Shown one piece after another: positions 4,986 to 29,473 of a DNA stretch of 32,000 nt. The stretch is from Candidatus Babelota bacterium (GTDB taxonomy: Bacteria; Babelota; Babeliae; Babelales; Vermiphilaceae). The stretch is taken from NCBI GenBank assembly GCA_039809905.1, contig JBDHVY010000001.1, positions 630,001 to 662,000 on the forward strand, read 5' to 3'. The first letter of the stretch is position 1. Each line of letters starts with the position of its first letter. A program made the translations under genes and the position numbers. Below the pieces are notes generated by a model. It saw only the letters and a list, made by a program, of their open reading frames with translations. It had not been told where the DNA came from and did no database searches.

Positions 4986-5573
4986 ATGTATTTTATACCA
5001 CGTAACAATGCAATCTACAGTTACATTGCGCATACAAATGCTAAGCGTCGCTATTGTGCGACGCTTTTTGTTTTATTAGCATTAATAATAATTTCTTTTT
5101 ATGGAATATACATACCATTAAATTCTCATATTCTTTTGTATAAGGCAGAAATTGCTCGTTTGCAAACACAATATCAAGAAATGAGTCAACTTAAAAAACA
5201 GAGTGATGAAGTATCATCGCTAATTGCAACAAGTAAGAAAAATATTAATGATGCTGCAATAGAAACGGATAAGAAAGAAGATTATTGTAACAAACACATG
5301 CTGTATATATTAGATGCTATACAACAAAAAGGTCTTATACTTGATACGTATGGATCATGTAAAGAAATGGATAAACAATGGTTTTCAAGATATAGTGCGC
5401 ATTTTGAAATAACGGGATCATATGAAAAAATAATTTCTTTTTTTAAGACGATTCAAGATTCAAAAAAAATGATTGATTTTTCATCTACAGCAATTTCTCG
5501 TTTGAATGATGATGCTTTTAAACTGAGCTGTGATGTAGGGATTGTTGCAGTGAAAAAAAGTTTGCTTCTTTAA
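4986..5573 (+). CDS. PilO-like bitopic membrane protein (TM + coiled coil + ferredoxin-like C-terminus)
   Basis: The track ORF starts at TTG 4956, and the first ATG is at 4986. TM (LFVLLALIIISFYGIYI), then a coiled coil (AEIARLQTQYQEMSQLKKQ). The C-terminal pattern HFEITGSYEKIISFFKTIQDSKKMIDF resembles the PilO G.Y..l..F...l core. This assignment is from memory of the family pattern only. Confidence 0.4.
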   Translation: MYFIPRNNAIYSYIAHTNAKRRYCATLFVLLALIIISFYGIYIPLNSHILLYKAEIARLQTQYQEMSQLKKQSDEVSSLIATSKKNINDAAIETDKKEDYCNKHMLYILDAIQQKGLILDTYGSCKEMDKQWFSRYSAHFEITGSYEKIISFFKTIQDSKKMIDFSSTAISRLNDDAFKLSCDVGIVAVKKSLLL

Positions 5574-5803
5574 ATCGTAATGAGTGTAAATTGGGCTTAT
5601 AAAAAATAAGCCCTTCAACTTTGAATAAGCTGAAGGGTTAGGGGGGTGAACAATACATAAAAGCATTGTTCAGTTAGGGACGTTTTTAATGCTTTTATTA
5701 AATGTTCGCCTAATGCTAACAAGCGCCTATTGCTTTGTCAAGGTCAGCATAATAGGATGTATGCTGAGTAAGAAAATAGAATTATTTTTATAAAAGAAAA
5801 AAG

Positions 5804-6145
5804 ATGAATATCATTCATGATAAAATCACTTTTGATGAACTGAAAAAAATGTCGGAAAAAAATAATTATAATTTGGTTAAAGCTGTAGTTGATACTGAAA
5901 ATAATATTATGGCAATAAATTGTAATATGCATAGTGAAGGGCAAGAATTGCTGATCCAAAATGGATCGCTGCGAGAAAATCTTTGGGGAGTTAATTTGTA
6001 TCCATATAAACCAACTGAAGATTTCATTGAATATTATTCTAAAATCAATGTAAAGCCATTACATGGCAATCAAAGCTGCTGGGTTGAGGATAAGCAAGTT
6101 CAGGACAAAATAAAAAGAATAGTTATTGCATTAGTAGTAAAATAA
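5804..6145 (+). CDS. Small conserved-looking cytosolic hypothetical protein
   Basis: 113-aa ORF with no signal peptide. The pattern LVKAVVD...AINCNMHSEGQELLIQNGS..ENLWGVNLYP resembles a small DUF family (I recall DUF5674 but cannot verify it). Confidence 0.5.
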   Translation: MNIIHDKITFDELKKMSEKNNYNLVKAVVDTENNIMAINCNMHSEGQELLIQNGSLRENLWGVNLYPYKPTEDFIEYYSKINVKPLHGNQSCWVEDKQVQDKIKRIVIALVVK

Positions 6146-6162
6146 ATACATTTTTTAGTTAT

Positions 6163-6879
6163 TTATTCATGTCCCGCTATAAATTTTGTAATTTTAGGAT
6201 AATTATGAGAATTATTTTTTAAGTCTTGCGATTGTGCGGTTTCAACAATGCTGCCTTCTCTCATTAAATAAATCGTGCAGTTAAGTTTTGAAATCAAATC
6301 AGTGTCATGAGTTGCAACTAAAACAATATATCCATCAGTTGCAAGTTGTTGAATGTTATTTGCAACATATGAAGTAAGCACTGGATCTAATGCTGAAGTT
6401 GGCTCATCAAGGCAAATTATTTGTGGTTCCATGGCGATCGCACGTGCAATTGCAAGGCGCTGCTTTTGCCCACCGGAAAGTTGAGACGCGTATTTATTAT
6501 TTTTATCTAATAATCCATAACGATGTAATAAATGATGTGCTATTTTTGTTGCATCAACAGGATTTTTTTTAAGAACTTTTTCTAAAGGTAGCGTAATATT
6601 TTGCTCTACTGTCAGATGATCAAATAAATTAAAATGTTGAAACACCATGCCAACAGTATGTGTTGTATTAATATACGCGAGATTTAGTGTTGTATTATCT
6701 AATGATATAGTTCCGCTGTTGACTGTTTCTAAATTATTTAAAATACGTAGTAAGGTAGATTTGCCAACTCCAGAAGATCCTAAAAATACGGCAATTTCAC
6801 CTTTTTTTACGGTGAGATTGATATTGTTCAGAATTTTTTTTGAACCGAATGATTTAGTAAGTTGATTAATCTTGAGCAT
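6163..6879 (-). CDS. Polar amino-acid ABC transporter ATP-binding protein
   Basis: Walker A GSSGVGKST, signature LSGGQKQRLAIARA, Walker B ICLDEPTSALD, H-loop ATHD. Overlaps the upstream permease gene by 14 nt. Confidence 0.9.
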   Translation of the reverse strand: MLKINQLTKSFGSKKILNNINLTVKKGEIAVFLGSSGVGKSTLLRILNNLETVNSGTISLDNTTLNLAYINTTHTVGMVFQHFNLFDHLTVEQNITLPLEKVLKKNPVDATKIAHHLLHRYGLLDKNNKYASQLSGGQKQRLAIARAIAMEPQIICLDEPTSALDPVLTSYVANNIQQLATDGYIVLVATHDTDLISKLNCTIYLMREGSIVETAQSQDLKNNSHNYPKITKFIAGHE

Positions 6880-7540
6880 GAATGTGCATCCTTTTCTCTA
6901 GACGTGCAACAAGGAACGAAACAGTAGATGTTAGCATAAGATATAAAAGTGCTACTGCAAAATAGACAGTAATAGCATCAAATGTTTTGCTTTTTACAAA
7001 ATTGGCTTGTTTGGTCAGTTCTGCAACACCAATGAGTGATGCAAGAGCAGAATCTTTAATGAGTGTTACAAACTCATTACCCAATGCTGGCAATGTTGTG
7101 CGCAATGCTTGTGGTAGCACAATATATGCAATAGTATCTTGTGTTGAAAAACCAAGTACTTTTGCGGCTTCAATTTGGCCGATTCCAACGGCAGCTATTC
7201 CTGTTCGCAGGACCTGACTAATATATGCAGCGCTATTTAGTCCTATGGCGATAATTGCTGTCCACAATGCAGGAATATGTATTCCTATCTGAGGAAGCAA
7301 AAAGTAAGCGCATAAAATTTGTATAAGCATTGGCGTGCCGCGAATAATAATTACATATGTGCTTACGATTGCGCGTAATATTTTATGATGACTTGTTTGC
7401 ATGAGAGCAAAAATAGTTCCTAAAATTAAACCAATGCATGATGCAGCACCAGCAATTTGTAATGTAACAACCAATCCTTGTAATAGTAATGGAAAGTATT
7501 GTGCTATCAGATCAAAATCTATCATCATAACAAGTTCCAT
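6866..7540 (-). CDS. Polar amino-acid ABC transporter permease (HisM/GlnP family)
   Basis: Multi-TM protein with the EAA-type loop (GIGQIEAAKVLGFSTQDTIAYIVLPQALRTTLPALGNEF). Confidence 0.9.
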   Translation of the reverse strand: MELVMMIDFDLIAQYFPLLLQGLVVTLQIAGAASCIGLILGTIFALMQTSHHKILRAIVSTYVIIIRGTPMLIQILCAYFLLPQIGIHIPALWTAIIAIGLNSAAYISQVLRTGIAAVGIGQIEAAKVLGFSTQDTIAYIVLPQALRTTLPALGNEFVTLIKDSALASLIGVAELTKQANFVKSKTFDAITVYFAVALLYLMLTSTVSFLVARLEKRMHIHAQD

Positions 7541-8298
7541 TTAGTTTTTAATGCGTCAAGGGTACCATCTTGTTCCATTTCATTGAGAGTAATTTGAATA
7601 TCTCTGCGCAAATCAGGGTAATGTTTTGATATTGCAAAAGCGCTTGATTCTTCAGTATTGGCAATAGGTGTTACATAAAAATCATTAATATTATATTTTT
7701 TAAAATAAGGCATCATAGAATGCGAAGCTGCTACAAATGCATCAGCTCTATTGCTTTGCAAAGCAAGTATTCCATCGCTGACTAAAGCGGAAGAAAGTCG
7801 TAACAATGTGATGCCAGGTTGTTCAGACATAAATGAATCTGCAATATAACCTTCATTTACTGCAACAGTTTTTCCTTCTAGGTCAGCAAGGGTGGTTAAC
7901 GCATCGCCATTTTTGAGGCTAATAATCACCAGAGGATTGCCAGTTAAATGAGGGCGAGTAAAGAGAGCTCGTTGAGCGCGTTCTTCTGTTGGGGTTATTC
8001 CTCCGGCAATAACCTGAATGTTACCAATTTGAATTTCAGGAATTAATGCGTCAAAAGGCATATCTTTAAGAATGATTGTTTTTTTTAGCCGTCTCAATAC
8101 TTCTTGTATAACATCAATATCAAAACCGGTAAAATCATCACCTTCTTTAAATGAGAATGGTGGAAATTCACTATTGGTGCCAACAACGACAGCGTTTGAT
8201 TCTGTTCTAGGAGTTACCCTGTTTTTAGCCTTGTACAAAATTATGGTTGAAATGGTGACAATGAGGATAACTATGATAGTTAATGACATTTTTTTCAT
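7525..8298 (-). CDS. Amino-acid ABC transporter substrate-binding protein (family 3 SBP)
   Basis: Signal/anchor N-terminus. Motifs FPPFSF...GFDIDV and the C-terminal DGTLDALKTKW are typical of family-3 solute-binding proteins. First gene of a three-gene overlapping operon. Confidence 0.85.
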   Translation of the reverse strand: MKKMSLTIIVILIVTISTIILYKAKNRVTPRTESNAVVVGTNSEFPPFSFKEGDDFTGFDIDVIQEVLRRLKKTIILKDMPFDALIPEIQIGNIQVIAGGITPTEERAQRALFTRPHLTGNPLVIISLKNGDALTTLADLEGKTVAVNEGYIADSFMSEQPGITLLRLSSALVSDGILALQSNRADAFVAASHSMMPYFKKYNINDFYVTPIANTEESSAFAISKHYPDLRRDIQITLNEMEQDGTLDALKTKWNLL

Positions 8299-8629: not shown

Positions 8630-9214
8630 ATGAATAAGAAAATTATGATAGTATTCAGTTTAATGATTGTTTCACCAGCGCAGCTATTGTTCTCATATCA
8701 AAGTCGAGATATTCGCAGCGATTTAAAGTTTAAATATGAAAACAATCTACTGAATGAATGTCAGCTATCTGAAGAAGTTTTCGATTTTATTGACGTATTA
8801 GATCGTGATATCAATATTATGGAAGAGCATAAAGCGAATATAGAACGTTTAGTAGATAAGAATAAGGGCTATTTTAGACGAAGTGTTGTTCCTTTCTTAA
8901 AGACAGTGTGGACAACTAAGTTAGCTACTCTTTCAGTAGCAATGGCTTTTGTTGCTTCAATGCCTTCTGAAATGATTAATCAAATAGAAGTTGCATCAAC
9001 GAAAGCATTATTGACTGATCTGCAACCTATTGCGCCTTATTTATCAGGAGCTTTAGCTCTTTGGTTTCTTAAGAATTTTTGTTCCAGGTACGGATATTAT
9101 GGCAAGCTTGATGCAGATCTTATGAGGTTGAAAACAAAAATTAATCGCGACAAGCTGATTATTGCAAAACTTAAAGAGCTCAAATATAATTTTGTATCTC
9201 AAAATGGTATTTAA
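8630..9214 (+). CDS. Hypothetical exported protein: signal + helical region + bilobed hydrophobic domain + C-terminal coiled coil
   Basis: 194 aa. MNKKIMIVFSLMIVSPAQ signal-like N-terminus. Hydrophobic pair LATLSVAMAFVASM / IAPYLSGALALWFL. C-terminal KLDADLMRLKTKINRDKLIIAKLKELK. Confidence 0.55.
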   Translation: MNKKIMIVFSLMIVSPAQLLFSYQSRDIRSDLKFKYENNLLNECQLSEEVFDFIDVLDRDINIMEEHKANIERLVDKNKGYFRRSVVPFLKTVWTTKLATLSVAMAFVASMPSEMINQIEVASTKALLTDLQPIAPYLSGALALWFLKNFCSRYGYYGKLDADLMRLKTKINRDKLIIAKLKELKYNFVSQNGI

Positions 9215-9240
9215 AAATAATCTATAAGTGAGGATTCTTT

Positions 9241-9837
9241 ATGAACAAAAACATGATGATTTTGGCAAGTTTAGTTATCTGCAGCGTATATGGTACTGCA
9301 GTAAGTTTTAATCAAGAATACAAAGATATTCTCTATGCTCTTGATGAACTTGATCAAGATTTTGCCTCTGTTCCCATGATCACTGAAAACATTAATATGT
9401 TTATTGGTGTAGTTCACATGAATATGCAAATGACTGAAAAAAAGTTGCTTGCTGCTACAAAAGCGAGAAATAAAGCATTGCTTTACGCTGTTGCTGCTAC
9501 AGTGGGCAACGCTGGTGTTCTTGTGGTTGTAAATATGATTGGCAATAAGATTCGCTATTCAAATACAAGCTTAGTAAGCCATGCAATGCTCAGCAATATG
9601 GATGATTTATTTAGGAGCTTAGTGCGTAGTGCAGCTTCAGCGGTAACCAGCTTTTATGCGGTAGCTAGCATTTATGATGCTTTCAAAGCTTATAACACAT
9701 TGAAAGAATCATTAGAATTAGACGCCAAAATTATGGATAAATTACAAGATTTAAGAGAATCTTTGGCATATGCTGCAGCTGATGAAAATACAGGCTCAGT
9801 TGGCGACAATTTATTAAACAGCTCCGTGCAGGGCTAA
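9241..9837 (+). CDS. Hypothetical exported protein, architectural paralogue of 8630-9214
   Basis: 198 aa. MNKNMMILASLVICSVYG signal-like N-terminus. Hydrophobic pair ALLYAVAATVGNAGVLVVVNMIG / SAASAVTSFYAVASIY. C-terminal ELDAKIMDKLQDLRESL. Confidence 0.55.
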   Translation: MNKNMMILASLVICSVYGTAVSFNQEYKDILYALDELDQDFASVPMITENINMFIGVVHMNMQMTEKKLLAATKARNKALLYAVAATVGNAGVLVVVNMIGNKIRYSNTSLVSHAMLSNMDDLFRSLVRSAASAVTSFYAVASIYDAFKAYNTLKESLELDAKIMDKLQDLRESLAYAAADENTGSVGDNLLNSSVQG

Positions 9838-16061: not shown

Positions 16062-17186
16062 TTAGTTGGGGAAATTTTTGGTAGTTGCGCCATTCTCTAT
16101 CAACAATTGCATCAGTTGTTCATTTCCTTGTTGGGCTGCAATTAGTAGACTTTGGTCTAGTTCAGATTGGCTTGCTTTGCCGCTTTCTAGAATAGCATCG
16201 ATTGCTTCTTGATATTGTAATTTTACAGCAGTCTCCAGATGAGTAGTTCCTGGATTGTAGAAAAGAAGCAGACGAATCATTTCGATGTTTTTTCGTTTTA
16301 TTGATAATACGAGGGGTCTATTGTCTTCTTTTAGTATATCTTGGCGGGCTCCTTTTTTCATGAGAAGTATTGCAAGAGCTTTATCGCGGGAACGAACTGC
16401 ATTAGAGAAACTTTGATCCAATTCAGATTGACTTGCTTTGCCGCTTTGTAGAATAGCACTGATTGCTTCCTTAAATTGGAGATTCACTGCAGTTTCAAGA
16501 TATGTGGGACCTGAATTATAGGCAAGAAGGATATTAACCATTTTGATGTCTTTGCCTTTTATTGCTAATAATAAAGGCCTTCTGTCTTGTTTGATTGTAT
16601 CTAATTGAGCACCGTTTTTAAGTAAAAAATTTATTTTTTCATATGCTTCAGCTTTTTTAGTAAGCAATGCTGATAAAAGTATAGGACGATACTTTTCTCT
16701 GCGAGAATAAAAATTAACATCCGCCCCATGTTCTATAAGATCAGCAATAGTGCTTATAGATAATGTGTGAATGTTTTTGTGAAGATAGATAGAAGTCGAA
16801 ACATATCTTTTGAGAAAAGGAAGATTCATTGAATCTAATACGATTGATCTATACAAAATATCTTCTGTCACCGGTAGCCATTCATTTAAAAAAGCAACCG
16901 TGTTTTTGGGCAATGTTATTGCACGATGCCAATCTTTATTGAGAGATATCATCGCTCCGATAGCTTTTTCTTTTTTTTTTATTGGTTCATTGCCAATTTT
17001 CAACCAATTAATAAATTGATCTTTTAATATATCATTGGGAAGAAAAGGTTGTTGATCAATGTTGACTAAAATTCGGTGTTTTTTTGTGTGCGTATTGATA
17101 TTAAGATCGCGCAAACGCTTCATAGATTTAATATTACTGGAGATTGTTATAGATATAAAGGCTATAAATAAAGTTATTTTATTCAT
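16062..17186 (-). CDS. Ankyrin-repeat protein with N-terminal signal-like segment and F-box-like motif
   Basis: ANK-type repeats (LIEHGADVN; RPILLSALL...INFLLKNGAQLD; QSLLIAAQQGNEQLMQLLIENGA). F-box-like LPNDILKDQFINWL...AIGAMISLNKDWHRAI. Hydrophobic N-terminus MNKITLFIAFISITISS. Confidence 0.85.
   Translation of the reverse strand: MNKITLFIAFISITISSNIKSMKRLRDLNINTHTKKHRILVNIDQQPFLPNDILKDQFINWLKIGNEPIKKKEKAIGAMISLNKDWHRAITLPKNTVAFLNEWLPVTEDILYRSIVLDSMNLPFLKRYVSTSIYLHKNIHTLSISTIADLIEHGADVNFYSRREKYRPILLSALLTKKAEAYEKINFLLKNGAQLDTIKQDRRPLLLAIKGKDIKMVNILLAYNSGPTYLETAVNLQFKEAISAILQSGKASQSELDQSFSNAVRSRDKALAILLMKKGARQDILKEDNRPLVLSIKRKNIEMIRLLLFYNPGTTHLETAVKLQYQEAIDAILESGKASQSELDQSLLIAAQQGNEQLMQLLIENGATTKNFPN
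16095..16619 (-). repeat. Intragenic tandem duplication, about 261 nt (87 aa) x 2, within the ankyrin gene
   Basis: aa 203-260 (RPLLLAIKGKDIKMVNILLAYNSGPTYLETAVNLQFKEAISAILQSGKASQSELDQS) versus aa 290-347 (RPLVLSIKRKNIEMIRLLLFYNPGTTHLETAVKLQYQEAIDAILESGKASQSELDQS). At DNA level, ctttggtctagttcagattggcttgctttgccgctttctagaatagca at 16150 matches ctttgatccaattcagattgacttgctttgccgctttgtagaatagca at 16411. Confidence 0.85.
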
Positions 17187-20268: not shown

Positions 20269-20414
20269 AGTTAAATTAAGTAGAGGTTATAATGCTTTAT
20301 ATTTAATATAGATTAATTGTGCAATATTGGGTAGAAAAATGGTCAAAAATGTGTTAGATTCTGTTCAACATTGGGTAAATTGAAGTCAAATATATATTTT
20401 TAAGGATGGTTCTA

Positions 20415-21155
20415 ATGAAAAAAGCGTCTCTTTTGGTCTTAGCTCTTGTTGCACTATTGCCCGGCTGTTGCTGCCGTAAAAACCAAGAATCAGTAAATAA
20501 ACCAGTTCGTAGAAATAACGTTGAAAAATACATGCAAACGGATGTGGCCGTAGAAGAAGAAAATGTAGATGGAGACGAAGATGGTTCTCTTGATGAAGTA
20601 GACTTTAATATCGATCTTAGCGATGAAGATTATGAAGAGCTTTTAAAGGCGCTTAAAGATAATGTGGATGAAGATGTGGATGGCGATGGTCTAGGCTATA
20701 TAGCTGAAGAAGATTCTGATGAAGAAGATGCCGATGAAGAAGATTCCGAAGAGATGGCATTTAATTGGATAGATTCACAAACAGATGATGAGTTTAAAAA
20801 ACTATACTTCTCATTCAACCACTATGGTATTAGAGCTGACCAAAAAACAGCACTCGCATACGATATTGAGCAAGTTAAACAATTAGTTGCTGAAGCTGGT
20901 AATGTACAGCCAACTATTGTGATTGAAGGACATGCGTGTCAAGAAGGTACTCCTTCCTACAACTTAGCATTATCAGAAAAACGTGCGAAAAATGTAGCGG
21001 ATCTTTTTGTAGCAGCTGGTGTTGATCAACGCTTGATTAAAGTTGTTGGTCGTGGCCAAGAATGCCCAACTGTTATGAATGGTAAAGTGGTTAATGGATC
21101 TCGTGAAGATCGTGCGCCAAATCGCCGTGTTGAAGTTCGTGTAATTTATACATAA
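20415..21155 (+). CDS. OmpA/Pal-like peptidoglycan-associated lipoprotein with a long acidic linker
   Basis: MKKASLLVLALVALLPGC lipobox-like signal. AAGGA lies 8 nt upstream of ATG 20415 (the track start 20406 is an alternative). C-terminal OmpA_C motifs: IEGHACQEGTPSYNLALSEKRA and NRRVEV. Confidence 0.85.
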   Translation: MKKASLLVLALVALLPGCCCRKNQESVNKPVRRNNVEKYMQTDVAVEEENVDGDEDGSLDEVDFNIDLSDEDYEELLKALKDNVDEDVDGDGLGYIAEEDSDEEDADEEDSEEMAFNWIDSQTDDEFKKLYFSFNHYGIRADQKTALAYDIEQVKQLVAEAGNVQPTIVIEGHACQEGTPSYNLALSEKRAKNVADLFVAAGVDQRLIKVVGRGQECPTVMNGKVVNGSREDRAPNRRVEVRVIYT

Positions 21156-21178: not shown

Positions 21179-21222
21179 ATAGCGCTCCATGTACTTTGTA
21201 TGTGGAGCGCTATCTGTTTTTT
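21179..21222 (+). terminator. Intrinsic terminator after the OmpA-like gene
   Basis: ATAGCGCTCCA (21179-21189) / TGGAGCGCTAT (21203-21213), an 11-bp perfect stem with a 13-nt loop, followed by CTGTTTTTT. It overlaps the 3' end of the convergent glycosyltransferase gene. Confidence 0.65.
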
Positions 21223-22358
21223 AGTATGTCTTTGACCAATTTCTTTAATTCCTGCGCAAAGTCCTTTTTATCCAATTTTTCAATCTTATTTTTATACGCT
21301 ATCAGTTTATCCTTGTTTTCCAATACACGTGCAATCAGTGGAGCAACCATATTGTGTTCTGTTATGGATGTACCAAAAAGATGCTTTTTTATAAAATGAT
21401 GGTTAAATTCTTCCCAAGAAATAGGGGTTGAGGTAGCATCAAGAAACAATGGAAGATTCATGTATAAGGCTTCGCAGATGCTTAACGTTCCAGATTTTGT
21501 GATCAAAAGATCAGATAATTGCATATAGTCGGCAATATTTTTGGTAAAGCCGATTATAAATAGATCTATGTGGTTTGGAACAAAAAGCTGGGCAAGGTCT
21601 TTTTTGCTTTTTTCATTTTTTCCAACGCAAACAATAAGATTAAATGATTGTTGTAGAGTAGTTAGTTGTGCTGTGTATTGCTTTATGTCGTCAGAACCGA
21701 GCGATCCCATCAGCAGCATAACGGTGGGCTTGTTACCATTAATCCTGTATTTCTGTTGAAGATCGTGTTTGTTTTTTAAAAGAAAGAAATCTCTTCGTAA
21801 TGGTGAACCGAGAATATGGATATGACTATCTGGTATGTGTGCGTTGCGTATTGGCTGCATGATATCAGGATCATTAAATGGCAAACATAAGTAAAACTGT
21901 TCATAGGCTAGATCAGCAATACCTATAATATAAGGAGTTACATCCAAATCAGTTGGCATGAGCACAAATGGAATATTAAGTTCCTGTGCTACATTAAGGA
22001 CCATATTGTTAATGATGGGGATAACTGAAATAATCAAATCTGGTTTTGTTGTAGTAAAGTAATTCCGTAATAATGCCATTATTTTTTCTTTTTGAGATTG
22101 GAGATACCATGTGCCAATGCCATAAATCCATTTCAGCAGCAGAACATGTTTTCCTGGTAATAAAGCATTATACATCTGTTCGCTTGAGTAGTTTTCAAAT
22201 GTTAAAAACTTGAAAGGATCAATAGAAAAAAGTATTTCGGTAAAAGCGTGACAGAGCTGAACATCATAATCAGCATGTAAATAGTCTTTCATAGCTTCAC
22301 TTGCAGCAGAATGTCCACCGCCACCAAAACTTGTTAAAATAATAATTTTCTTTTTCAT
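21210..22358 (-). CDS. MGDG-synthase / UgtP-like diacylglycerol glycosyltransferase (GT28-type)
   Basis: N-terminal KKIIILTSFGGGGHSAASEAMKDYL (MGDG_synth-type). C-terminal GT-B region TKSGTLSICEALYMNLPLFL. The start overlaps the upstream ORF stop (ATGA). Confidence 0.8.
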   Translation of the reverse strand: MKKKIIILTSFGGGGHSAASEAMKDYLHADYDVQLCHAFTEILFSIDPFKFLTFENYSSEQMYNALLPGKHVLLLKWIYGIGTWYLQSQKEKIMALLRNYFTTTKPDLIISVIPIINNMVLNVAQELNIPFVLMPTDLDVTPYIIGIADLAYEQFYLCLPFNDPDIMQPIRNAHIPDSHIHILGSPLRRDFFLLKNKHDLQQKYRINGNKPTVMLLMGSLGSDDIKQYTAQLTTLQQSFNLIVCVGKNEKSKKDLAQLFVPNHIDLFIIGFTKNIADYMQLSDLLITKSGTLSICEALYMNLPLFLDATSTPISWEEFNHHFIKKHLFGTSITEHNMVAPLIARVLENKDKLIAYKNKIEKLDKKDFAQELKKLVKDILKNR

Positions 22359-23110
22359 GGGTAATTTTTTAATATTGGTTTACAGGTGTTTATTTCCGCT
22401 TGATCATATAATCTTATTTTCTTATGTAATCGTTTATAAGGTTTATTAAGGAAAAAGAATCGTAATTTTTTTACAAAACAGGATCGCAGTTTTATATATT
22501 TTTTGGTTAGAACGCCCATTTTGGGATGAACCACACATGCTTTGACAGCGATATTTTTGACGTCCTTATTCTGTGCAATTGCTCTTTTGACAATATTCCA
22601 CTTTACAATGGCAATACGATCTTTTTCTTTATAAGAAGCTTGTGAAACTTGTTTTAAGGCATTATTAAAATTATATAATAAGTCATCTTTGTAACGATCA
22701 AATCTGACAATATAGGTAGCACTTTTTTTATTTTCATGTCTGGAATAACAAATAATATAGATAGTGTTATGTGCGCTATTGATGTCTATATATTTTTGTA
22801 CTTGTTCAATAGTAAGCCCGGTAGTTATGGGTAAAATTCCTTCTTCAAAAAATTCTCGTGCAGCGGTTATAAGAGGATGAGTTTCATTTTTTTCTTTGCC
22901 TCCTCCAAAGTCATCATATGTTCCACGAGAATTTCCTTCTGCTTCTCGAGCCAAAATAAGGTATTTTGTATTGTTATAGGTAAATACCGGAAGCACTGAT
23001 GCACTGGTAAAATTAAAGTCTGTTAAATATTCTTTTGCGTGAGTAATGCTCGATGCAAAGTATGATAGCAAAAAACCTAAGAGCATTGCTCGACAATTGA
23101 TTTTTAGCAT
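22355..23110 (-). CDS. Exported Nudix-like protein (degenerate Nudix box)
   Basis: Signal-like MLLGFLLSYFASSITHA. The stretch YLILAREAEGNSRGTYDDFGGGKEKNETHPLITAAREFFEEGIL resembles G-x5-E-x7-REUxEExGU but with altered spacing. Paralogue of 23132-24322. Confidence 0.5.
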   Translation of the reverse strand: MLKINCRAMLLGFLLSYFASSITHAKEYLTDFNFTSASVLPVFTYNNTKYLILAREAEGNSRGTYDDFGGGKEKNETHPLITAAREFFEEGILPITTGLTIEQVQKYIDINSAHNTIYIICYSRHENKKSATYIVRFDRYKDDLLYNFNNALKQVSQASYKEKDRIAIVKWNIVKRAIAQNKDVKNIAVKACVVHPKMGVLTKKYIKLRSCFVKKLRFFFLNKPYKRLHKKIRLYDQAEINTCKPILKNYP

Positions 23111-23131
23111 AATTTTGCCTATGTTTTTATG

Positions 23132-24322
23132 TTATTTGCTATCTACCCAATCCCAAAATCTATCCCACCATGATGGTCTTTGCGGAGCCAATTTGCGTTG
23201 CGGTAATCTTGGCTGTTGAACAGCAGCTCTTTGTGGAATTTTTGCCGCAGGTGTTGCTTTGACTGCTGGCGCAACAGCTGCTGGTTTAACAACCACTGGA
23301 GCTTGAGCTGGTGATGGAGTTATTCGTTGTGGTGCTGGCATTGGTGCCGGTGTAATTACTGGTTTTCTGGTGAATTGATCGTAACGTCTTATTTTGTTAT
23401 TTACATCTTCCTGATATGGCTTATTCATAAAAAATGGTCGTAGTTTTTTTACTAACCAAGGTCGTAATGTGATTGTTTCTTCAGACCATTGTTGGCCATA
23501 AAGCGTAAGCGGGTTTTTACATAATGATCTACGTGGAGGGCATAGCACAAGTGCTGTTACTGTTCTGCCACTATTTATAGGATCATTGTTGATGAGTGTT
23601 TCAATGGTTTGCCAGTTCACCAGAGCAATGCGATCTTTTTCTCTTGAATGACGATTTTTTGTATTTCTTAAGGCAGTATAGAAATTTTTGAATAATGCAT
23701 CTTTATAAAGGCTAAAATCGGTAATATAGATGATACCGCTAGAAAAAGCTATGACATGGTGCGTATTATTTGATGCTACATCGATAAATTTGATTGTATT
23801 TGATAAAGAAAGACCACAACTGTCTTTTAAAATAGCTTCTTCATAAAATTCACGTGCAGCTGCAAAATAGTATGGTTCAGGCTCATTTTTAAGTGGTCCA
23901 AAATCATAATCTCTGCTTCCCCCAAAATCATCATATGTCCCTTTATCTTTTGATCTGCCTCTTTCACTTTCTCGCGATAAAATCAAGTATTTTATACCAT
24001 TGCTATCAGTAAAAAAAGGAAGAACTGATCCTGCTCCAAAGCGATAGTTGATTATTTCCAATGGTGTTTGGGTTTGTTGGTGTGCTTGCGGAAGTTGTTG
24101 AAGTTGAGGTTGTTGTTGACCTCGCGCAACTTGCTGTTGAGGTGCTTGTTGAGGTCGTTGTTGTGCTTGCGGAGTTTGTCTGGCAGGAACAGGTTGCTGT
24201 TGCAATAGTTGTTGCTGTGCTTGAGCTTTGTTGCGCTGTCCGCCTTTTGCCAGAATAGGATTGTTGGTGATGATATTCAACAAGAACGCTAATGTAAATA
24301 TTACATTTTTAGTTTTTAGCAT
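23132..24322 (-). CDS. Exported Nudix-like protein with Gln/Pro-rich N-terminal and Pro/Ala-rich C-terminal extensions
   Basis: The likely start is ATG 24322, preceded by TAAGGAAT (the track start 24364 is an alternative). Signal-like VIFTLAFLLNIITNNPILA. Core YLILSRESERG...GTYDDFGGSRD...AAAREFYEEAIL. Shares the C-terminal motif LRPWLVKKLRPFFMNKPY...KIRRYDQ with the 22355 ORF. Confidence 0.5.
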   Translation of the reverse strand: MLKTKNVIFTLAFLLNIITNNPILAKGGQRNKAQAQQQLLQQQPVPARQTPQAQQRPQQAPQQQVARGQQQPQLQQLPQAHQQTQTPLEIINYRFGAGSVLPFFTDSNGIKYLILSRESERGRSKDKGTYDDFGGSRDYDFGPLKNEPEPYYFAAAREFYEEAILKDSCGLSLSNTIKFIDVASNNTHHVIAFSSGIIYITDFSLYKDALFKNFYTALRNTKNRHSREKDRIALVNWQTIETLINNDPINSGRTVTALVLCPPRRSLCKNPLTLYGQQWSEETITLRPWLVKKLRPFFMNKPYQEDVNNKIRRYDQFTRKPVITPAPMPAPQRITPSPAQAPVVVKPAAVAPAVKATPAAKIPQRAAVQQPRLPQRKLAPQRPSWWDRFWDWVDSK

Positions 24323-24418
24323 GATACTATTCCTTATTTTGATTTTAAAAAACTCAGATAGCATTATTATCTAAAATATAAGCAGAAAATAGCAATAGTT
24401 TATACAAGAGTTATTTTT

Positions 24419-25842: not shown

Positions 25843-26604
25843 TTAGGGAGTTGGAGTTAAAAAAATAACCTTGAGATCCTTAATCTCTTGCTTATATTGG
25901 TTGCGCAATGAAGAAATAATCAAATGTGCAAAACTGCGAAATAATTGTTTTTCATGCATTGCATCAGCAACAAGCGGCATGTTAAACGTAATTTTTAAAT
26001 TTTTACCAACAACTTCTGAATTGAATTGGATAGAGTTCATATTCAGTAATTCTAAAGTTTTTTTAAGCCAATTATGTGCACTTGCAATCATAGTATCATT
26101 CCATGCAGTAGGAGTGCGGCGTGGTTTTTCTTGTGTGCTAACTGCATGAGTAGATGGTGTTTTTTCTTGCGCTATATGCGATCTTGTTTGTTGGTTAGTA
26201 GTAGAATGAGGGGTTGGAGTTTTGCGTTGTTGAGCAACCTGTTTATTTTCCGGTTTATTATCCATAGCTTTAGCAGTAGGAGCAGAAGATGGTTTTTGTG
26301 ATGGTTGAGATACAGGGCTGCGATGCTCTTCTGTTTTTTCTACTGATTTATTTGCTACTGGTTTTGCAGGTGTAGGGCGGCATTCTTTTATTTCTTGGCG
26401 TGGTTTTTGAGCAGGTTTTTCATGAATAATGGGCTTATCGCCAAAAAAAATGCCAATTTTTGCTGATTTGGTTGTCATACCAAAAAAATTTTTTTCTTCT
26501 TTTTCAAAAATTTTTATTGAAAACTCTTTTGGATTTTCTGCTTGATTCCATGCTTTTTCGATAGCTTTCATTATTGATGATGCTTGCTCAATGATAGATT
26601 TCAT
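25843..26604 (-). CDS. jag: Jag-like protein (Jag_N + long disordered linker + KH-like C-terminus, no R3H seen)
   Basis: The N-terminal ASSIMKAIEKAWNQAENPKEFSIKIFEKEEKNFFGMTTKSAKI matches the Jag N-terminal pattern. Classic position directly upstream of mnmE. The C-terminal about 85 aa resembles the Jag KH region but lacks GxxG. Confidence 0.6.
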   Translation of the reverse strand: MKSIIEQASSIMKAIEKAWNQAENPKEFSIKIFEKEEKNFFGMTTKSAKIGIFFGDKPIIHEKPAQKPRQEIKECRPTPAKPVANKSVEKTEEHRSPVSQPSQKPSSAPTAKAMDNKPENKQVAQQRKTPTPHSTTNQQTRSHIAQEKTPSTHAVSTQEKPRRTPTAWNDTMIASAHNWLKKTLELLNMNSIQFNSEVVGKNLKITFNMPLVADAMHEKQLFRSFAHLIISSLRNQYKQEIKDLKVIFLTPTP

Positions 26605-26710: not shown

Positions 26711-26786
26711 TGGAGCGAGAAACGGGACTTGAACCCGCGACCTTTGCCTTGGCAAGGCAACGCTCTACCAACTGAGCTATTCTCGC
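26711..26786 (-). tRNA. tRNA-Gly (anticodon GCC), CCA encoded
   Basis: The reverse complement reads GCGAGAA TA GCTC AGTTGGTA GAGC G TTGCC TTGCCAA GGCAA AGGTC GCGGG TTCAAGT CCCGT TTCTCGC T CCA. This is a full cloverleaf with GCC in the anticodon loop. Confidence 0.95.
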
Positions 26787-27595: not shown

Positions 27596-28291
27596 TTAAT
27601 TATTTTCATTATCATCTAATGGCATGCCGGCTCTGGCAAAAAGCTCCTGAAGTTTTTTTTGACAAGCAGGATTTCTGAATGCTCCTGGCATAAGTTCACA
27701 AGCAGCTTTCGCTGATGCAATATCTTGAAAAAGTGTTTGGCTTTCGAAAAACGCTCGTTCCGCATCTTTTGTTTTTGTAGAAGCTTCTTGGAAATCATTA
27801 GCTAGTTTTACTGTTTTATTGTTTTCATCTTGAAGTTGCTGACTCGTTGATTTGATATTTTGAATTTCTTTTTCTTCTTCTGTTAAAAGCCCTAATTTTT
27901 TTCTGAGTTCATCAACTCCAAATGCTACTCCGCGATCGATATACTTAAAGCCAAGAACTACGGTTTGTTCGGCAGCAGCTTTGGTTGCATAGCCTGTGAA
28001 TGTAGCACTATCTTCTTGTATCTTTTTTAAATCAGCATTGTACTGTGTCTTTGATTGCCAATATCTTTCTCGTGCTGCATTAAGCTCTTCAGCTGATATT
28101 CCTGGTCGCTGGCCTTGATTCTCTGGTGCAGCTGGTGGAGCAGCTGGTGGTCCCTCTCTTCGATCATTATCTTGAGCATCTTCTTGTTGTCCTTGAGCTT
28201 GATCTCCAGGCTTTTCTGGAGCATTCATTGAATGCAAAGATGTTGTTGAAAAAACGATAAATGCGGATAATAAAAACAATGTCTTATTCAT
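27596..28291 (-). CDS. Hypothetical exported protein with Pro/Ala/Gln-rich N-terminal region and helical C-terminal region
   Basis: 231 aa. Signal-like MNKTLFLLSAFIVFSTTSLHS. PPAAPPAAP repeat. The central region is similar to ORF 28293-28994 (KTQYN...DSATFTGYATKAAAEQ vs KTDQYN...FDATFIGTAEYAQRE). Confidence 0.55.
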   Translation of the reverse strand: MNKTLFLLSAFIVFSTTSLHSMNAPEKPGDQAQGQQEDAQDNDRREGPPAAPPAAPENQGQRPGISAEELNAARERYWQSKTQYNADLKKIQEDSATFTGYATKAAAEQTVVLGFKYIDRGVAFGVDELRKKLGLLTEEEKEIQNIKSTSQQLQDENNKTVKLANDFQEASTKTKDAERAFFESQTLFQDIASAKAACELMPGAFRNPACQKKLQELFARAGMPLDDNENN

Positions 28292-28292
28292 C

Positions 28293-28994
28293 TTATTTTT
28301 TTTCTTTATTAAGAAGTTTTCGTAGCTTTTCTAATTCTTGTTGGCTTTTTTGATCAGTTTTTGTTGTATGTTCTTGCAGATAGACTTGGTATTCAGCATG
28401 TACTTTTAGGCCTTCATATGCATTAGTCTGGTCCTTTTTACATTTTTCCAATTTTTTATTGAAAGATTTAGCTATTTTTTGTACTTCACCACTTACTGCA
28501 TCTTCTGGCATTAGTCTATCTGTAAGTAACGTAAATGCAGTTCCAATAATATTATTTATGAATTTTTTTAATAATTCTCGTTGAGCATATTCAGCTGTTC
28601 CTATGAATGTTGCATCAAAAGGAGAATATTCCTTCAAAAATTGTGACGTGTTGTTATATTGATCTGTTTTGGTAGTAAGATTAGTAAATTCATCTTCTTC
28701 TTTAGTTCTGTTTTGTGGTTTATTTCCTGTGTCATTATCAGTTAATTTTTTACATAATTCGTTCAAAATTGCGTTGTTTCCAGTTTTATCTGGATGTAAG
28801 AAAAGCATTGCTTTTTTATAATTCGCCCTATTTCCTTGTGTCAACTTTCGACCTTCTTCTATCAGATCATCCATATTGAAATTTTGACCAGCTTTTAGGT
28901 CGTCAATTTTTCTTCTAAACTCATCCATGGATAAAATATTAGAAACCGCAAGCATGCATAAGCATGACAATAACACATGTTTGTATATGATCAT
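28293..28994 (-). CDS. Hypothetical exported protein with a J-domain-like HPD motif
   Basis: 233 aa. Signal-like VLLSCLCMLAVSNILS. NYKKAMLFLHPDKTGNNAILNELCKKLTD aligns with the DnaJ stretch YKRLAMKYHPDRNQGD...AYEVLTD. Its start overlaps the upstream stop (ATGA), and the next gene starts 1 nt after it. Confidence 0.5.
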   Translation of the reverse strand: MIIYKHVLLSCLCMLAVSNILSMDEFRRKIDDLKAGQNFNMDDLIEEGRKLTQGNRANYKKAMLFLHPDKTGNNAILNELCKKLTDNDTGNKPQNRTKEEDEFTNLTTKTDQYNNTSQFLKEYSPFDATFIGTAEYAQRELLKKFINNIIGTAFTLLTDRLMPEDAVSGEVQKIAKSFNKKLEKCKKDQTNAYEGLKVHAEYQVYLQEHTTKTDQKSQQELEKLRKLLNKEKK

Positions 28995-29473
28995 TGTTCA
29001 TTGCCTTTCTTATGATTTTCTTTACGTATTTCTAACAATAGATTTCTAGAGTTACGGCTGATGTTTTCAGCCATTGCATCAAACTTCTTTTGTTGAACTG
29101 TTTCTTGCTCTATTTTTTTTTGTGTTTCTGCATGGCTTGCTTGGGCAGCTATCATTTCTTTGATTTTTTCTTCATTCTGCTCTTTTAAAAAGGCAATTTT
29201 TTCTGGCTCTTTTTTTCTCACCTTAGCTACTTGTAAAGCTATATTTTTTCCTGCTAAACCGACTGCGTATAATCCCATATCCTGTAACGGAAGATCTTTA
29301 TTAAGGTCAATTTGGGGAGGCAGTATTTCAAATTTGTTTACTGTTAGCTCACCAAGCTCATTCCAATTGTTGCTTTCATACGTAATATCAAAGCTGAAAA
29401 AAATACCACTTTCTATTGAAACAGAATGTATTAAAGTATAAAGAGCTATACCAATAAGAAACATTTTTTTCAT
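28991..29473 (-). CDS. Hypothetical exported protein with C-terminal charged coiled coil
   Basis: 160 aa. Signal-like MKKMFLIGIALYTLIHSVS. C-terminal KEQNEEKIKEMIAAQASHAETQKKIEQETVQQKK. Starts 2 nt after the ybeY stop. Confidence 0.5.
   Translation of the reverse strand: MKKMFLIGIALYTLIHSVSIESGIFFSFDITYESNNWNELGELTVNKFEILPPQIDLNKDLPLQDMGLYAVGLAGKNIALQVAKVRKKEPEKIAFLKEQNEEKIKEMIAAQASHAETQKKIEQETVQQKKFDAMAENISRNSRNLLLEIRKENHKKGNEQ

Follow-up and report, generated by a model that had tools for sequence, protein, structure and literature searches.

Why would a bacterium thought to live inside protists carry two adjacent genes for Nudix hydrolases that appear to be exported? Nudix hydrolases are normally cytoplasmic house-cleaning enzymes. 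The question is raised by a stretch of 32,000 nucleotides, hereafter the window, from Candidatus Babelota bacterium (assembly GCA_039809905.1, contig JBDHVY010000001.1, positions 630,001 to 662,000 of the forward strand), in which two neighbouring open reading frames (ORFs) on the minus strand encode a short and a long member of one divergent family. Our best explanation, put forward tentatively, is that both are active Nudix pyrophosphohydrolases that leave the bacterial cytoplasm, one in a soluble and the other in a tethered form, and that they would act on a host-derived substrate.

Two Nudix paralogues in a Dependentiae genome

The short paralogue (251 aa) occupies positions 22355..23110 of the window on the minus strand and is identical (100%) to the public protein P0001. 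The long paralogue (396 aa) occupies 23132..24322 on the same strand. The initial annotation had begun it at 24364 (410 aa), a start that was not confirmed: the ORF listed to 24364 has 14 surplus N-terminal codons, and translation most likely begins at the ATG at 24322 (MLKTKN...), which has AAGGA 7-8 nt upstream, agrees with the family-consensus start MLK(T/N)K... and gives the identical 396-aa protein of the public gene call P0085. BLASTP aligned the two copies with 39% identity over 257 columns (E 3e-44), so that the adjacent ORFs are indeed paralogues, and the motifs described as shared are present in both (SVLPVFT/SVLPFFT, YLIL(A/S)RE, GTYDDFGG, AAREF(F/Y)EE and VKKLR.FF.NKPY...KIR.YDQ).

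The window is AT-rich, with a GC content of 0.343. Both the Nudix proteins and the products of the flanking genes have their homologues in metagenome-assembled genomes (MAGs) of TM6/Dependentiae/Babeliales, and the source organism is therefore, by homology, a member of Dependentiae/Babeliales, intracellular parasites of protists. The probable intracellular bacterium proposed initially thus receives a phylum.

Nudix fold and catalytic box

The AlphaFold2 (AF2) model of the short copy, built on the family alignment, had a predicted local distance difference test score (pLDDT) of 92.4 and a predicted template modelling score of 0.85. The core of the long copy (residues 90-320) was also modelled confidently, with pLDDT above 90. 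When the models were compared with PDB by Foldseek, the 50 best listed matches of either copy were all of Nudix fold, the first being NUDT7 (1e-7 for the short copy and 2.7e-5 for the long one). The Pfam score itself was sub-threshold: NUDIX (PF00293) gave 18.1 bits with the short copy, below the gathering cut-off of 21.1, and no match with the long copy; 37 of 57 relatives matched it at E <= 0.01 (best 2.3e-6). The search of PDB with single sequences gave no matches, the profile search gave weak matches that were all Nudix enzymes but one (an Sm protein, the weakest, E 1.5), and NCBIfam gave scattered weak Nudix matches, e.g. MutT1 and dihydroneopterin triphosphatase. Profile and structure comparison, proposed at the outset as the check on the fold, both returned Nudix matches, and the fold itself is borne out for both copies by the models and Foldseek.

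Conservation and alignment to hidden Markov models (HMMs) place the Nudix box of the short copy at residues 70-92 (22835..22903, minus strand), with the pattern G70-x5-E76-x8-R85-E86-F-F-E89-E90-G-I-L. In the long copy, invariant residues, AF2 and Foldseek delimit a catalytic domain at residues 89-316 (23375..24058, minus strand), and its box, G135...R157-E158-F-Y-E161-E162-A-I-L, was located by the invariant residues at 23828-23920 (minus strand). Across 57 sequences G70, R85, E86, E89, E90, E162, K163 and R209 (short-copy numbering) are invariant and E76 is conserved in at least 90%; in a joint bacterial-viral alignment the same residues are invariant, R209 nearly so. The long-copy equivalents of the metal-binding residues are G135, R157, E158, E161 and E162. 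The acidic REUxEE helix reported initially is therefore kept, its R-E-x2-E-E being invariant across the 57 relatives. Neither copy satisfies the canonical spacing and ending, G-x5-E-x7-REUxEE-x-G-U. The final Gly is missing from both, with Ile in its place (EEGIL in the short copy, EEAIL in the long one), as had been noticed; the altered Gly/Glu spacing was misplaced, since G70-x5-E76 of the short copy is canonical and the change sits between E76 and R85, where E76-x8-R85 has one residue too many (HMM alignment to PDB 5gg5). The long-copy loop has a further insertion of ~8 residues, giving 21 residues from G135 to R157 vs 13 in the canonical box. Catalysis is likely because all catalytic residues are kept in both paralogues, and by this conservation both are very probably divergent, active Nudix hydrolases.

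Export signals

Export was scored by a heuristic of our own, which combines n-region charge with a 12-residue hydropathy window, and by reading of the sequences. The putative Sec-type signal peptide of the short copy covers residues 1-25 (MLKINCR-AMLLGFLLSYFASSI-THA↓K; 23036..23110, minus strand), with an n-region charge of +2, a hydropathy maximum of 1.98 and a separate N-terminal AF2 helix of lower confidence at residues 6-19. That of the long copy also covers residues 1-25 (MLKTK-NVIFTLAFLLNII-TNNPILA↓K; 24248..24322, minus strand), with a charge of +2, a maximum of 2.69 and an AF2 helix at residues 5-19. In each N-terminus a basic n-region precedes a hydrophobic core of 12-15 residues and a small-x-small c-region (THA↓K, ILA↓K). 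The feature is family-wide: 68 of 72 members pass the heuristic, and the exceptions look truncated. Many members have a helix-breaking c-region ending in x-A before the folded domain (e.g. THA↓K, ILA↓K, IQA↓K, VNA↓M), and the pattern x-Q/H/N-A↓K/R is found in many. A lipobox-like motif occurs in 9 relatives (e.g. LTSC, LPAC); the lipobox [LVI][ASTVI][GAS]C is absent from the signal end of both window proteins. Export of both proteins is probable on these grounds; cleavage and the final location are predictions.

The same heuristic flagged 14 of the 31 window ORFs of at least 120 aa (about 45%), among them a solute-binding protein, an OmpA-like lipoprotein, an ankyrin-repeat protein (16062-17186, minus strand) and several ORFans, and none of the recognisable cytoplasmic housekeeping proteins of the window. 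Runs of signal-bearing ORFans without a Pfam match lie at 8630-9837 (plus strand) and 27596-29473 (minus strand). In the cultured relative Chromulinavorax 44% of the coding sequences carry signals (PMC6561590), in line with the window, and Dependentiae proteins with such signals are believed to leave the cell by secretion or within shed outer membrane vesicles (PMC6561590, PMC4378268). The signal-peptide-like N-termini noted at the outset are thus real features of the whole family by this measure. The remark that export is unusual for a Nudix protein holds only in part: the signals are there, but within this phylum export is common.

Spacers, Trp-rich tail and basic motif

In the long copy the catalytic domain lies between two low-complexity spacers. 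The first, Gln/Pro-rich and basic (residues 26-88; 24059..24247, minus strand), contains 43% Gln and 13% Pro, has a net charge of +6 and is predicted to be disordered (AF2 pLDDT below 50). The second, Pro/Ala-rich and basic (residues 317-382; 23177..23374, minus strand), contains 20% Pro and 17% Ala, has a net charge of +11 and is also predicted to be disordered by AF2. Composition and GC content agree with the GC-rich Gln/Pro block and the Pro/Ala tail described initially (0.494 at 24064-24235 and 0.502 at 23160-23360 vs 0.343 for the window), and no DNA tandem repeats were found in the spacers. Similar spacers recur across the long clade of the family with lengths that differ greatly between orthologues; P0042, for instance, has no N-terminal spacer and a C-terminal one of 103 residues. 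A 65-aa Leu/Val/Glu-rich ORF at 24061-24258 (plus strand), antisense to the Gln-rich block, is a mirror of the CAA/CAG-rich coding and not a gene.

The long copy ends with a Trp-rich amphipathic segment, PSWWDRFWDWVDSK (23135..23176, minus strand), which AF2 models as a helix at residues 385-395 (pLDDT 73-81) and which has a hydrophobic moment of 0.47. The pattern SW..RFW.W stands at the extreme C-terminus of ~14 of 78 family members; those placed in the tree, and the tail-bearing copy of locus L002, all belong to the long clade. From its modelled shape the helix is probably an interfacial membrane tether. C-terminal amphipathic anchors, comparable in principle, are also found in PBP5 and MinD. 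A general sorting signal was considered and rejected, since across the window and 14 Dependentiae loci no gene other than the Nudix ones carries the tail. A metagenome scan for the DNA pattern of the tail yielded at least 120 stretches with no Nudix-family member among them; two ORFs had a similar ending, about the number expected by chance. Metagenome contig Ga0315543_1000653 (L066) encodes a Cys-rich protein of 449 aa that has a membrane segment at its N-terminus and whose last residues, ...KSWWDRFWDWIFGR, are near-identical to the long-copy tail, and a small protein of L056 has the tail-like C-terminal end ...PWYKRFWNWVKKPFVKK.

The basic C-terminal motif shared by both copies was delimited in the short copy by conservation and AF2 as V213-Q237, VKKLRFFFLNKPYKRLHKKIRLYDQ (22400..22474, minus strand). 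It sits in a sub-domain specific to the Dependentiae family, where L208, R209, Y225 and Y235 are conserved in or near the motif in the 57 sequences, and the region folds confidently in AF2 (helix 210-220, strands 226-229 and 232-236). A profile search for this module in other proteins gave three short fragments only.

Relatives in giant viruses

The best predicted-structure match in BFVD was a Solivirus Nudix protein (A0A3G5AHU5; E 2e-18, TM 0.65, 28% identity over 209 columns), and the next matches were further giant-virus Nudix proteins. A scan of IMG/VR found 32 loci with relatives of ~170-210 aa, many of them from giant-virus MAGs; the presence of PolB, SNF2 helicase, DUF5767, 2-Cys adaptor and PNK3P marks them as genuine virus loci. 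These relatives carry the family motifs SAG[IV]LP, [WY][SD]DFGG, TA[AS]REF[FY]EE, EK..I.W and, later, LR. Profile-profile comparison of the bacterial and viral families (hhalign) gave a probability of 99.2% and E 1.4e-19 over 154 columns of the catalytic domain, and an HMM of the viral family scored the window proteins at 60.8 (short) and 38.5 (long) bits vs 18.1 and no match for Pfam NUDIX. The viral family is unnamed and had 1,053 metagenomic matches at E <= 1e-5. In a neighbour-joining tree the bacterial proteins formed the sister group to it. By these comparisons the nearest relatives outside Dependentiae are signal-less Nudix proteins of giant viruses (Nucleocytoviricota), ~195 aa long.

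The two families share the fold and motifs beyond the box, including the invariant downstream E-K and the later L-R. The viral proteins aligned here lack the signal segment, an inserted beta-hairpin, the basic C-terminal motif, the spacers and the Trp-rich tail, and the loop that leads into their Nudix helix has yet one more residue. The decapping enzyme L375 of Mimivirus, with its box near residue 258 (PMC8478210), differs from the present family in architecture. The second Mimivirus Nudix protein, L534, a candidate for membership here, has been likened to Nudix proteins from giant viruses, bacteria and protists that are themselves uncharacterised (PMC8478210). On three giant-virus contigs (L020, L027, L034) the Nudix gene adjoins a DUF5767 gene or is one gene away, which suggests conserved local synteny.

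Proposed function

The signal peptides predicted on both proteins would place their work outside the bacterial cytoplasm. The short copy would be the free, soluble form, and the long copy would most likely be the same catalytic domain provided with two disordered basic spacers and a Trp-rich helix that pins it to a membrane surface. The R-E-x2-E-E helix, with the downstream Glu-Lys pair, would bind Mg2+ or Mn2+ and cleave a diphosphate bond. The target would most likely be a host-cell molecule, such as an inositol pyrophosphate, a dinucleoside polyphosphate, an RNA 5' cap or a dinucleotide cofactor; a precursor of the bacterial envelope would be a less likely target. A host target is suggested because the nearest relatives are signal-less giant-virus Nudix proteins, which must act in the host cytoplasm, and because the same specialised enzyme in an intracellular bacterial phylum bears an export signal in nearly every copy. 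Kinship with the viral proteins raises the plausibility of a host-directed role above what the sequence had suggested by itself, and we lean, with limited confidence, towards such a role rather than a nutritional one.

The mature proteins have pI values of 9.7-10 and conserved basic residues around the box, features that fit an anionic substrate, probably a strongly charged one. The pI argument is tempered by the general basicity of proteins from AT-rich genomes. For each of the three profiles (bacterial, viral and joint) the best sequence-profile matches in PDB were yeast Ddp1 and human DIPP1-3, enzymes with very anionic substrates, to which the basic pI seen here would be suited. Their box spacing differs from that of the present family, and the matches (E 0.008-0.013 for Ddp1, 0.2-0.8 for DIPP1-3) cover the Nudix-box half only and are not significant. 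The mRNA-decapping enzyme Dcp2 ranked 27 for the short copy in Foldseek (E 3e-4) and gave E 0.76 with the virus profile.

The idea of a Nudix enzyme fitted by a parasite of eukaryotes for work beyond its own cell is shared with the Nudix effectors that pathogens of eukaryotes secrete, among them Phytophthora Avr3b, Ralstonia RipN, flax-rust AvrM14 and those of Magnaporthe/Colletotrichum (bioRxiv 10.1101/2023.11.14.566975). These effectors have no specific sequence or structural kinship with the present pair: AvrM14 of flax rust ranked 11 for the long copy in Foldseek (E 2e-3), no better than generic Nudix proteins. Their delivery is by a eukaryotic signal peptide/RxLR or by type III secretion vs a predicted bacterial Sec signal here.

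Several points weigh against a host-directed function. Gene transfer between virus and bacterium may have run either way, and the virus family is itself uncharacterised. The hints to the substrate conflict, structure pointing to coenzyme A (CoA) diphosphatases and profiles to Ddp1/DIPP, none of them significantly. The export call comes from our own heuristic and a reading of the sequences, and the basic spacer after the hydrophobic segment of the long copy disfavours Sec and could mean the opposite topology. With about 45% of window ORFs bearing export signals, export alone marks no effector, and we know of no route across the outer membrane in this phylum.

A more specific form of the host-directed reading, which we regard as doubtful, is that giant viruses and Dependentiae of the same protists share one host-directed enzyme, transferred horizontally between them, to which the bacteria added a Sec signal and, in one paralogue, a tether; it would cleave a eukaryote-specific polyphosphate (inositol pyrophosphate, mRNA 5' cap) at or beyond the bacterial surface. 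If true, it would represent a new class of bacterial effector and give the first functional handle on an abundant giant-virus Nudix family. A Nudix family with export signals in obligate intracellular parasites with almost no metabolism of their own points to reactions carried out on molecules of the host, beyond the bacterial cell. Through its kinship with a large, as yet unnamed family of giant viruses, one enzyme links two unrelated kinds of protist parasite, and a single assay could inform both; two concrete features lend themselves to testing, the soluble form paired with a tethered one and the Trp-rich helix conserved at the C-terminus. The fold is ordinary, the Nudix label is known for some relatives and export signals are very common in the phylum, all of which tempers this. 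As read from the sequences, what sets the family apart is its export signal, a C-terminal sub-domain peculiar to it, a probably tethered paralogue and its relatives in giant viruses.

Possible salvage of host cofactors

The main rival, nearly as likely as the host-directed reading and like it far from secure, is extracytoplasmic salvage: the exported Nudix proteins, one soluble and one tethered, would work in the periplasm or at the surface, where they would split host CoA or acyl-CoA, NAD(H), FAD, ADP-ribose or NDP-sugars into pieces for import. Family-wide export signals and the tether-like amphipathic helix with spacers on the long form would suit such a role. Escherichia coli UshA and Haemophilus NadN, exported hydrolases that split nucleotide diphosphate conjugates for uptake, offer a possible analogy; their fold is that of the metallophosphoesterase/5'-nucleotidase type, not Nudix. 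The importer would be a bacterium unable to make either nucleotides or cofactors: synthesis of both is missing from the genomes of Babela and TM6 (PMC4378268), and Chromulinavorax relies on nucleoside salvage (PMC6561590).

Salvage is also favoured by the best solved structural neighbours of both copies, three different CoA diphosphatases (NUDT7, AtNUDT11 and Deinococcus radiodurans DR1184), which gave the longest structural alignments, about 200-240 columns. The identity in these alignments is 12-16% and the TM-scores are just 0.4-0.55, and the three enzymes are peroxisomal or cytosolic, without a bacterial export signal. Membership of the CoA diphosphatases was rejected, as the NuCoA signature LLTxR[SA]x3[RK]x3Gx3FPGG is not kept. 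When the corresponding short-copy stretch (LILAREAEGNSRGTYDDFGG) is read against it, the [SA] and Pro positions are not retained, the basic and Gly positions are shifted, and the distance from Arg to GG is 15 (18 in the long copy) vs 16. Two further observations speak against salvage: the signal-less viral relatives have no obvious need for salvage of a periplasmic type, and no linked transporter or nucleotidase was found in any of the 14 loci.

Topology of the N-terminal segment

An improbable alternative is that the proteins are not exported, the N-terminus being an uncleaved anchor that holds the Nudix domain on the cytoplasmic face for membrane-associated house-cleaning. In the long clade many Arg and Lys residues occupy the spacer behind the hydrophobic segment (its net charge is +6 in the long copy), which by the positive-inside rule would favour the cytoplasm; the uncharged N-terminal stretches of 18-20 residues would make a borderline membrane helix, and C-terminal amphipathic helices also anchor the cytoplasmic proteins MinD and FtsA. 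Nearly all members, however, have a positively charged n-region, the cores are only 12-15 residues long and give way to helix breakers (N/P/S/T), with small residues at -3/-1, the sequence after the hydrophobic segment is neutral or acidic in the short clade, and the nine lipobox-like members make sense for exported proteins alone.

Glycosyltransferase and gene neighbourhood

Downstream of the short copy lies a diacylglycerol glycosyltransferase of the GT28 type (MGDG-synthase/UgtP-like; 21210..22358, minus strand). The MGDG type assigned to it initially is supported by Pfam (Glyco_tran_28_C, E 2e-10) and by PDB matches to the processive diacylglycerol beta-glucosyltransferase 9wde (E 4e-14) and to MGD1 4wyi (E 7e-13). 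The stop codon of the short copy overlaps its start as ATGA at 22355..22358 (minus strand), as read directly. An envelope role would follow if the Nudix proteins were co-expressed with this enzyme and acted on its sugar-nucleotide donor, on its UDP product or on a lipid-linked diphosphate. We consider this quite unlikely. In its favour are the 4-nt overlap, the order mnmE-Nudix-GT28 in 5 related loci and the finding that a consensus scan of the coding strand detected no terminator-like site within the unit. The neighbourhood survey suggested at the outset covered 14 loci, and synteny was seen in close relatives only, the 5 loci being those with RNase G 78-89% identical. The Nudix-to-GT28 spacing varied from -4 to about +150 nt, the overlap being seen in this genome only and gaps of about 4 to 150 nt in its relatives; locus L008 keeps two Nudix genes and lacks the glycosyltransferase gene, and in 8 loci from more distant genomes the Nudix genes sit among others that are unrelated (MetRS, ankyrin, thioredoxin, HolB, LigT, DUF502 and others). 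An operon conserved with the glycosyltransferase was therefore rejected on variable spacing, loss and unlinked genes. GT28 enzymes such as MGDG synthase and UgtP use UDP-sugars at the cytoplasmic face, across the membrane from an exported enzyme. Of the translational coupling proposed initially, the ATGA overlap stands and co-transcription of the pair with the glycosyltransferase is plausible here, but a conserved functional link does not; the glycosyltransferase is probably a neighbour and not a functional partner.

Least probable are catalytically dead Nudix-fold proteins serving as a ligand sensor or a structural envelope protein, for which the non-canonical box spacing with its lost final Gly, Pfam scores below the gathering value in both copies and a relative with a domain devoid of RE..EE can be cited, and against which R85, E86, E89, E90, G70 and E162-K163 are invariant in 57 bacterial sequences and kept in viruses, the pattern expected under selection for catalysis. 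The relative concerned, P0077 (526 aa, metagenome), has two family domains fused, the first keeping RE..EE and the second without it (LGAWQES), a pseudo-enzyme domain; P0080 and P0090 likewise show two matched stretches. The envelope, cytoplasm-facing anchor and dead-enzyme explanations are all less likely than a host-directed or a salvage function.

Family distribution and further features of the window

A word-indexed search found 75 homologues of the Nudix pair, and an exhaustive profile search of 1.84 billion representatives gave 174 clusters at E <= 1e-30 and 313 at E <= 1e-10. All members with an organism label or otherwise assignable belong to Dependentiae/TM6/Babeliales MAGs, as do the genome loci examined (14 of 14 of TM6/Dependentiae type). 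The Nudix label as such already exists, since automatic annotation gives some relatives the name "NUDIX hydrolase [Candidatus Babeliales bacterium]" or MutT; the giant-virus kinship appears to be new, and a literature search found no paper on exported Nudix proteins in Dependentiae.

In a neighbour-joining tree of the core regions a short clade, with the short copy, stood apart from a long clade, with the long copy. One short and one long form are kept together in other genomes too, e.g. at locus L002 and on the contig with P0003 and P0042, so that the duplication is, from the tree, old, with both forms retained. The lineage of L004, L006 and L008 has duplicated independently, up to 3-4 copies. 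In L006, positions 5010-8144 hold three intact tandem copies and a fragment matching the C-terminal motif alone, just upstream of the glycosyltransferase gene, an arrangement that suggests ongoing duplication and decay at the locus.

The window also encodes UvrC, an M23 peptidase, an amino-acid ABC transporter, a DEAD-box helicase, a photolyase, an ankyrin-repeat protein, GatB and RNase G, as well as an OmpA-like lipoprotein, the GT28 glycosyltransferase, MnmE, a Jag-like protein and RuvA. The order on the minus strand is tRNA-Gly, jag, mnmE, Nudix-long, Nudix-short and GT28. An Rfam scan returned nothing but a tRNA; tRNA-Gly (GCC) at 26711-26786 (minus strand) lies directly upstream of the jag-like gene and likely marks the start of the jag-mnmE-Nudix-Nudix-GT28 unit. 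Promoter-like sites were no commoner in the window than in shuffled sequence. The consensus scan found a hairpin at 21179..21213, its 16-bp stem being succeeded by a run of T, between the glycosyltransferase gene and a convergent OmpA-like gene (20406-21155, plus strand), which is likely the end of the unit and probably a terminator shared with the OmpA-like gene. The Jag-like protein (25843-26604, minus strand), in which neither a KH nor an R3H domain was detected, has a weak Jag_N match (E 3.6e-4) and a long centre rich in Pro, Gln, Ser, Thr and Lys.

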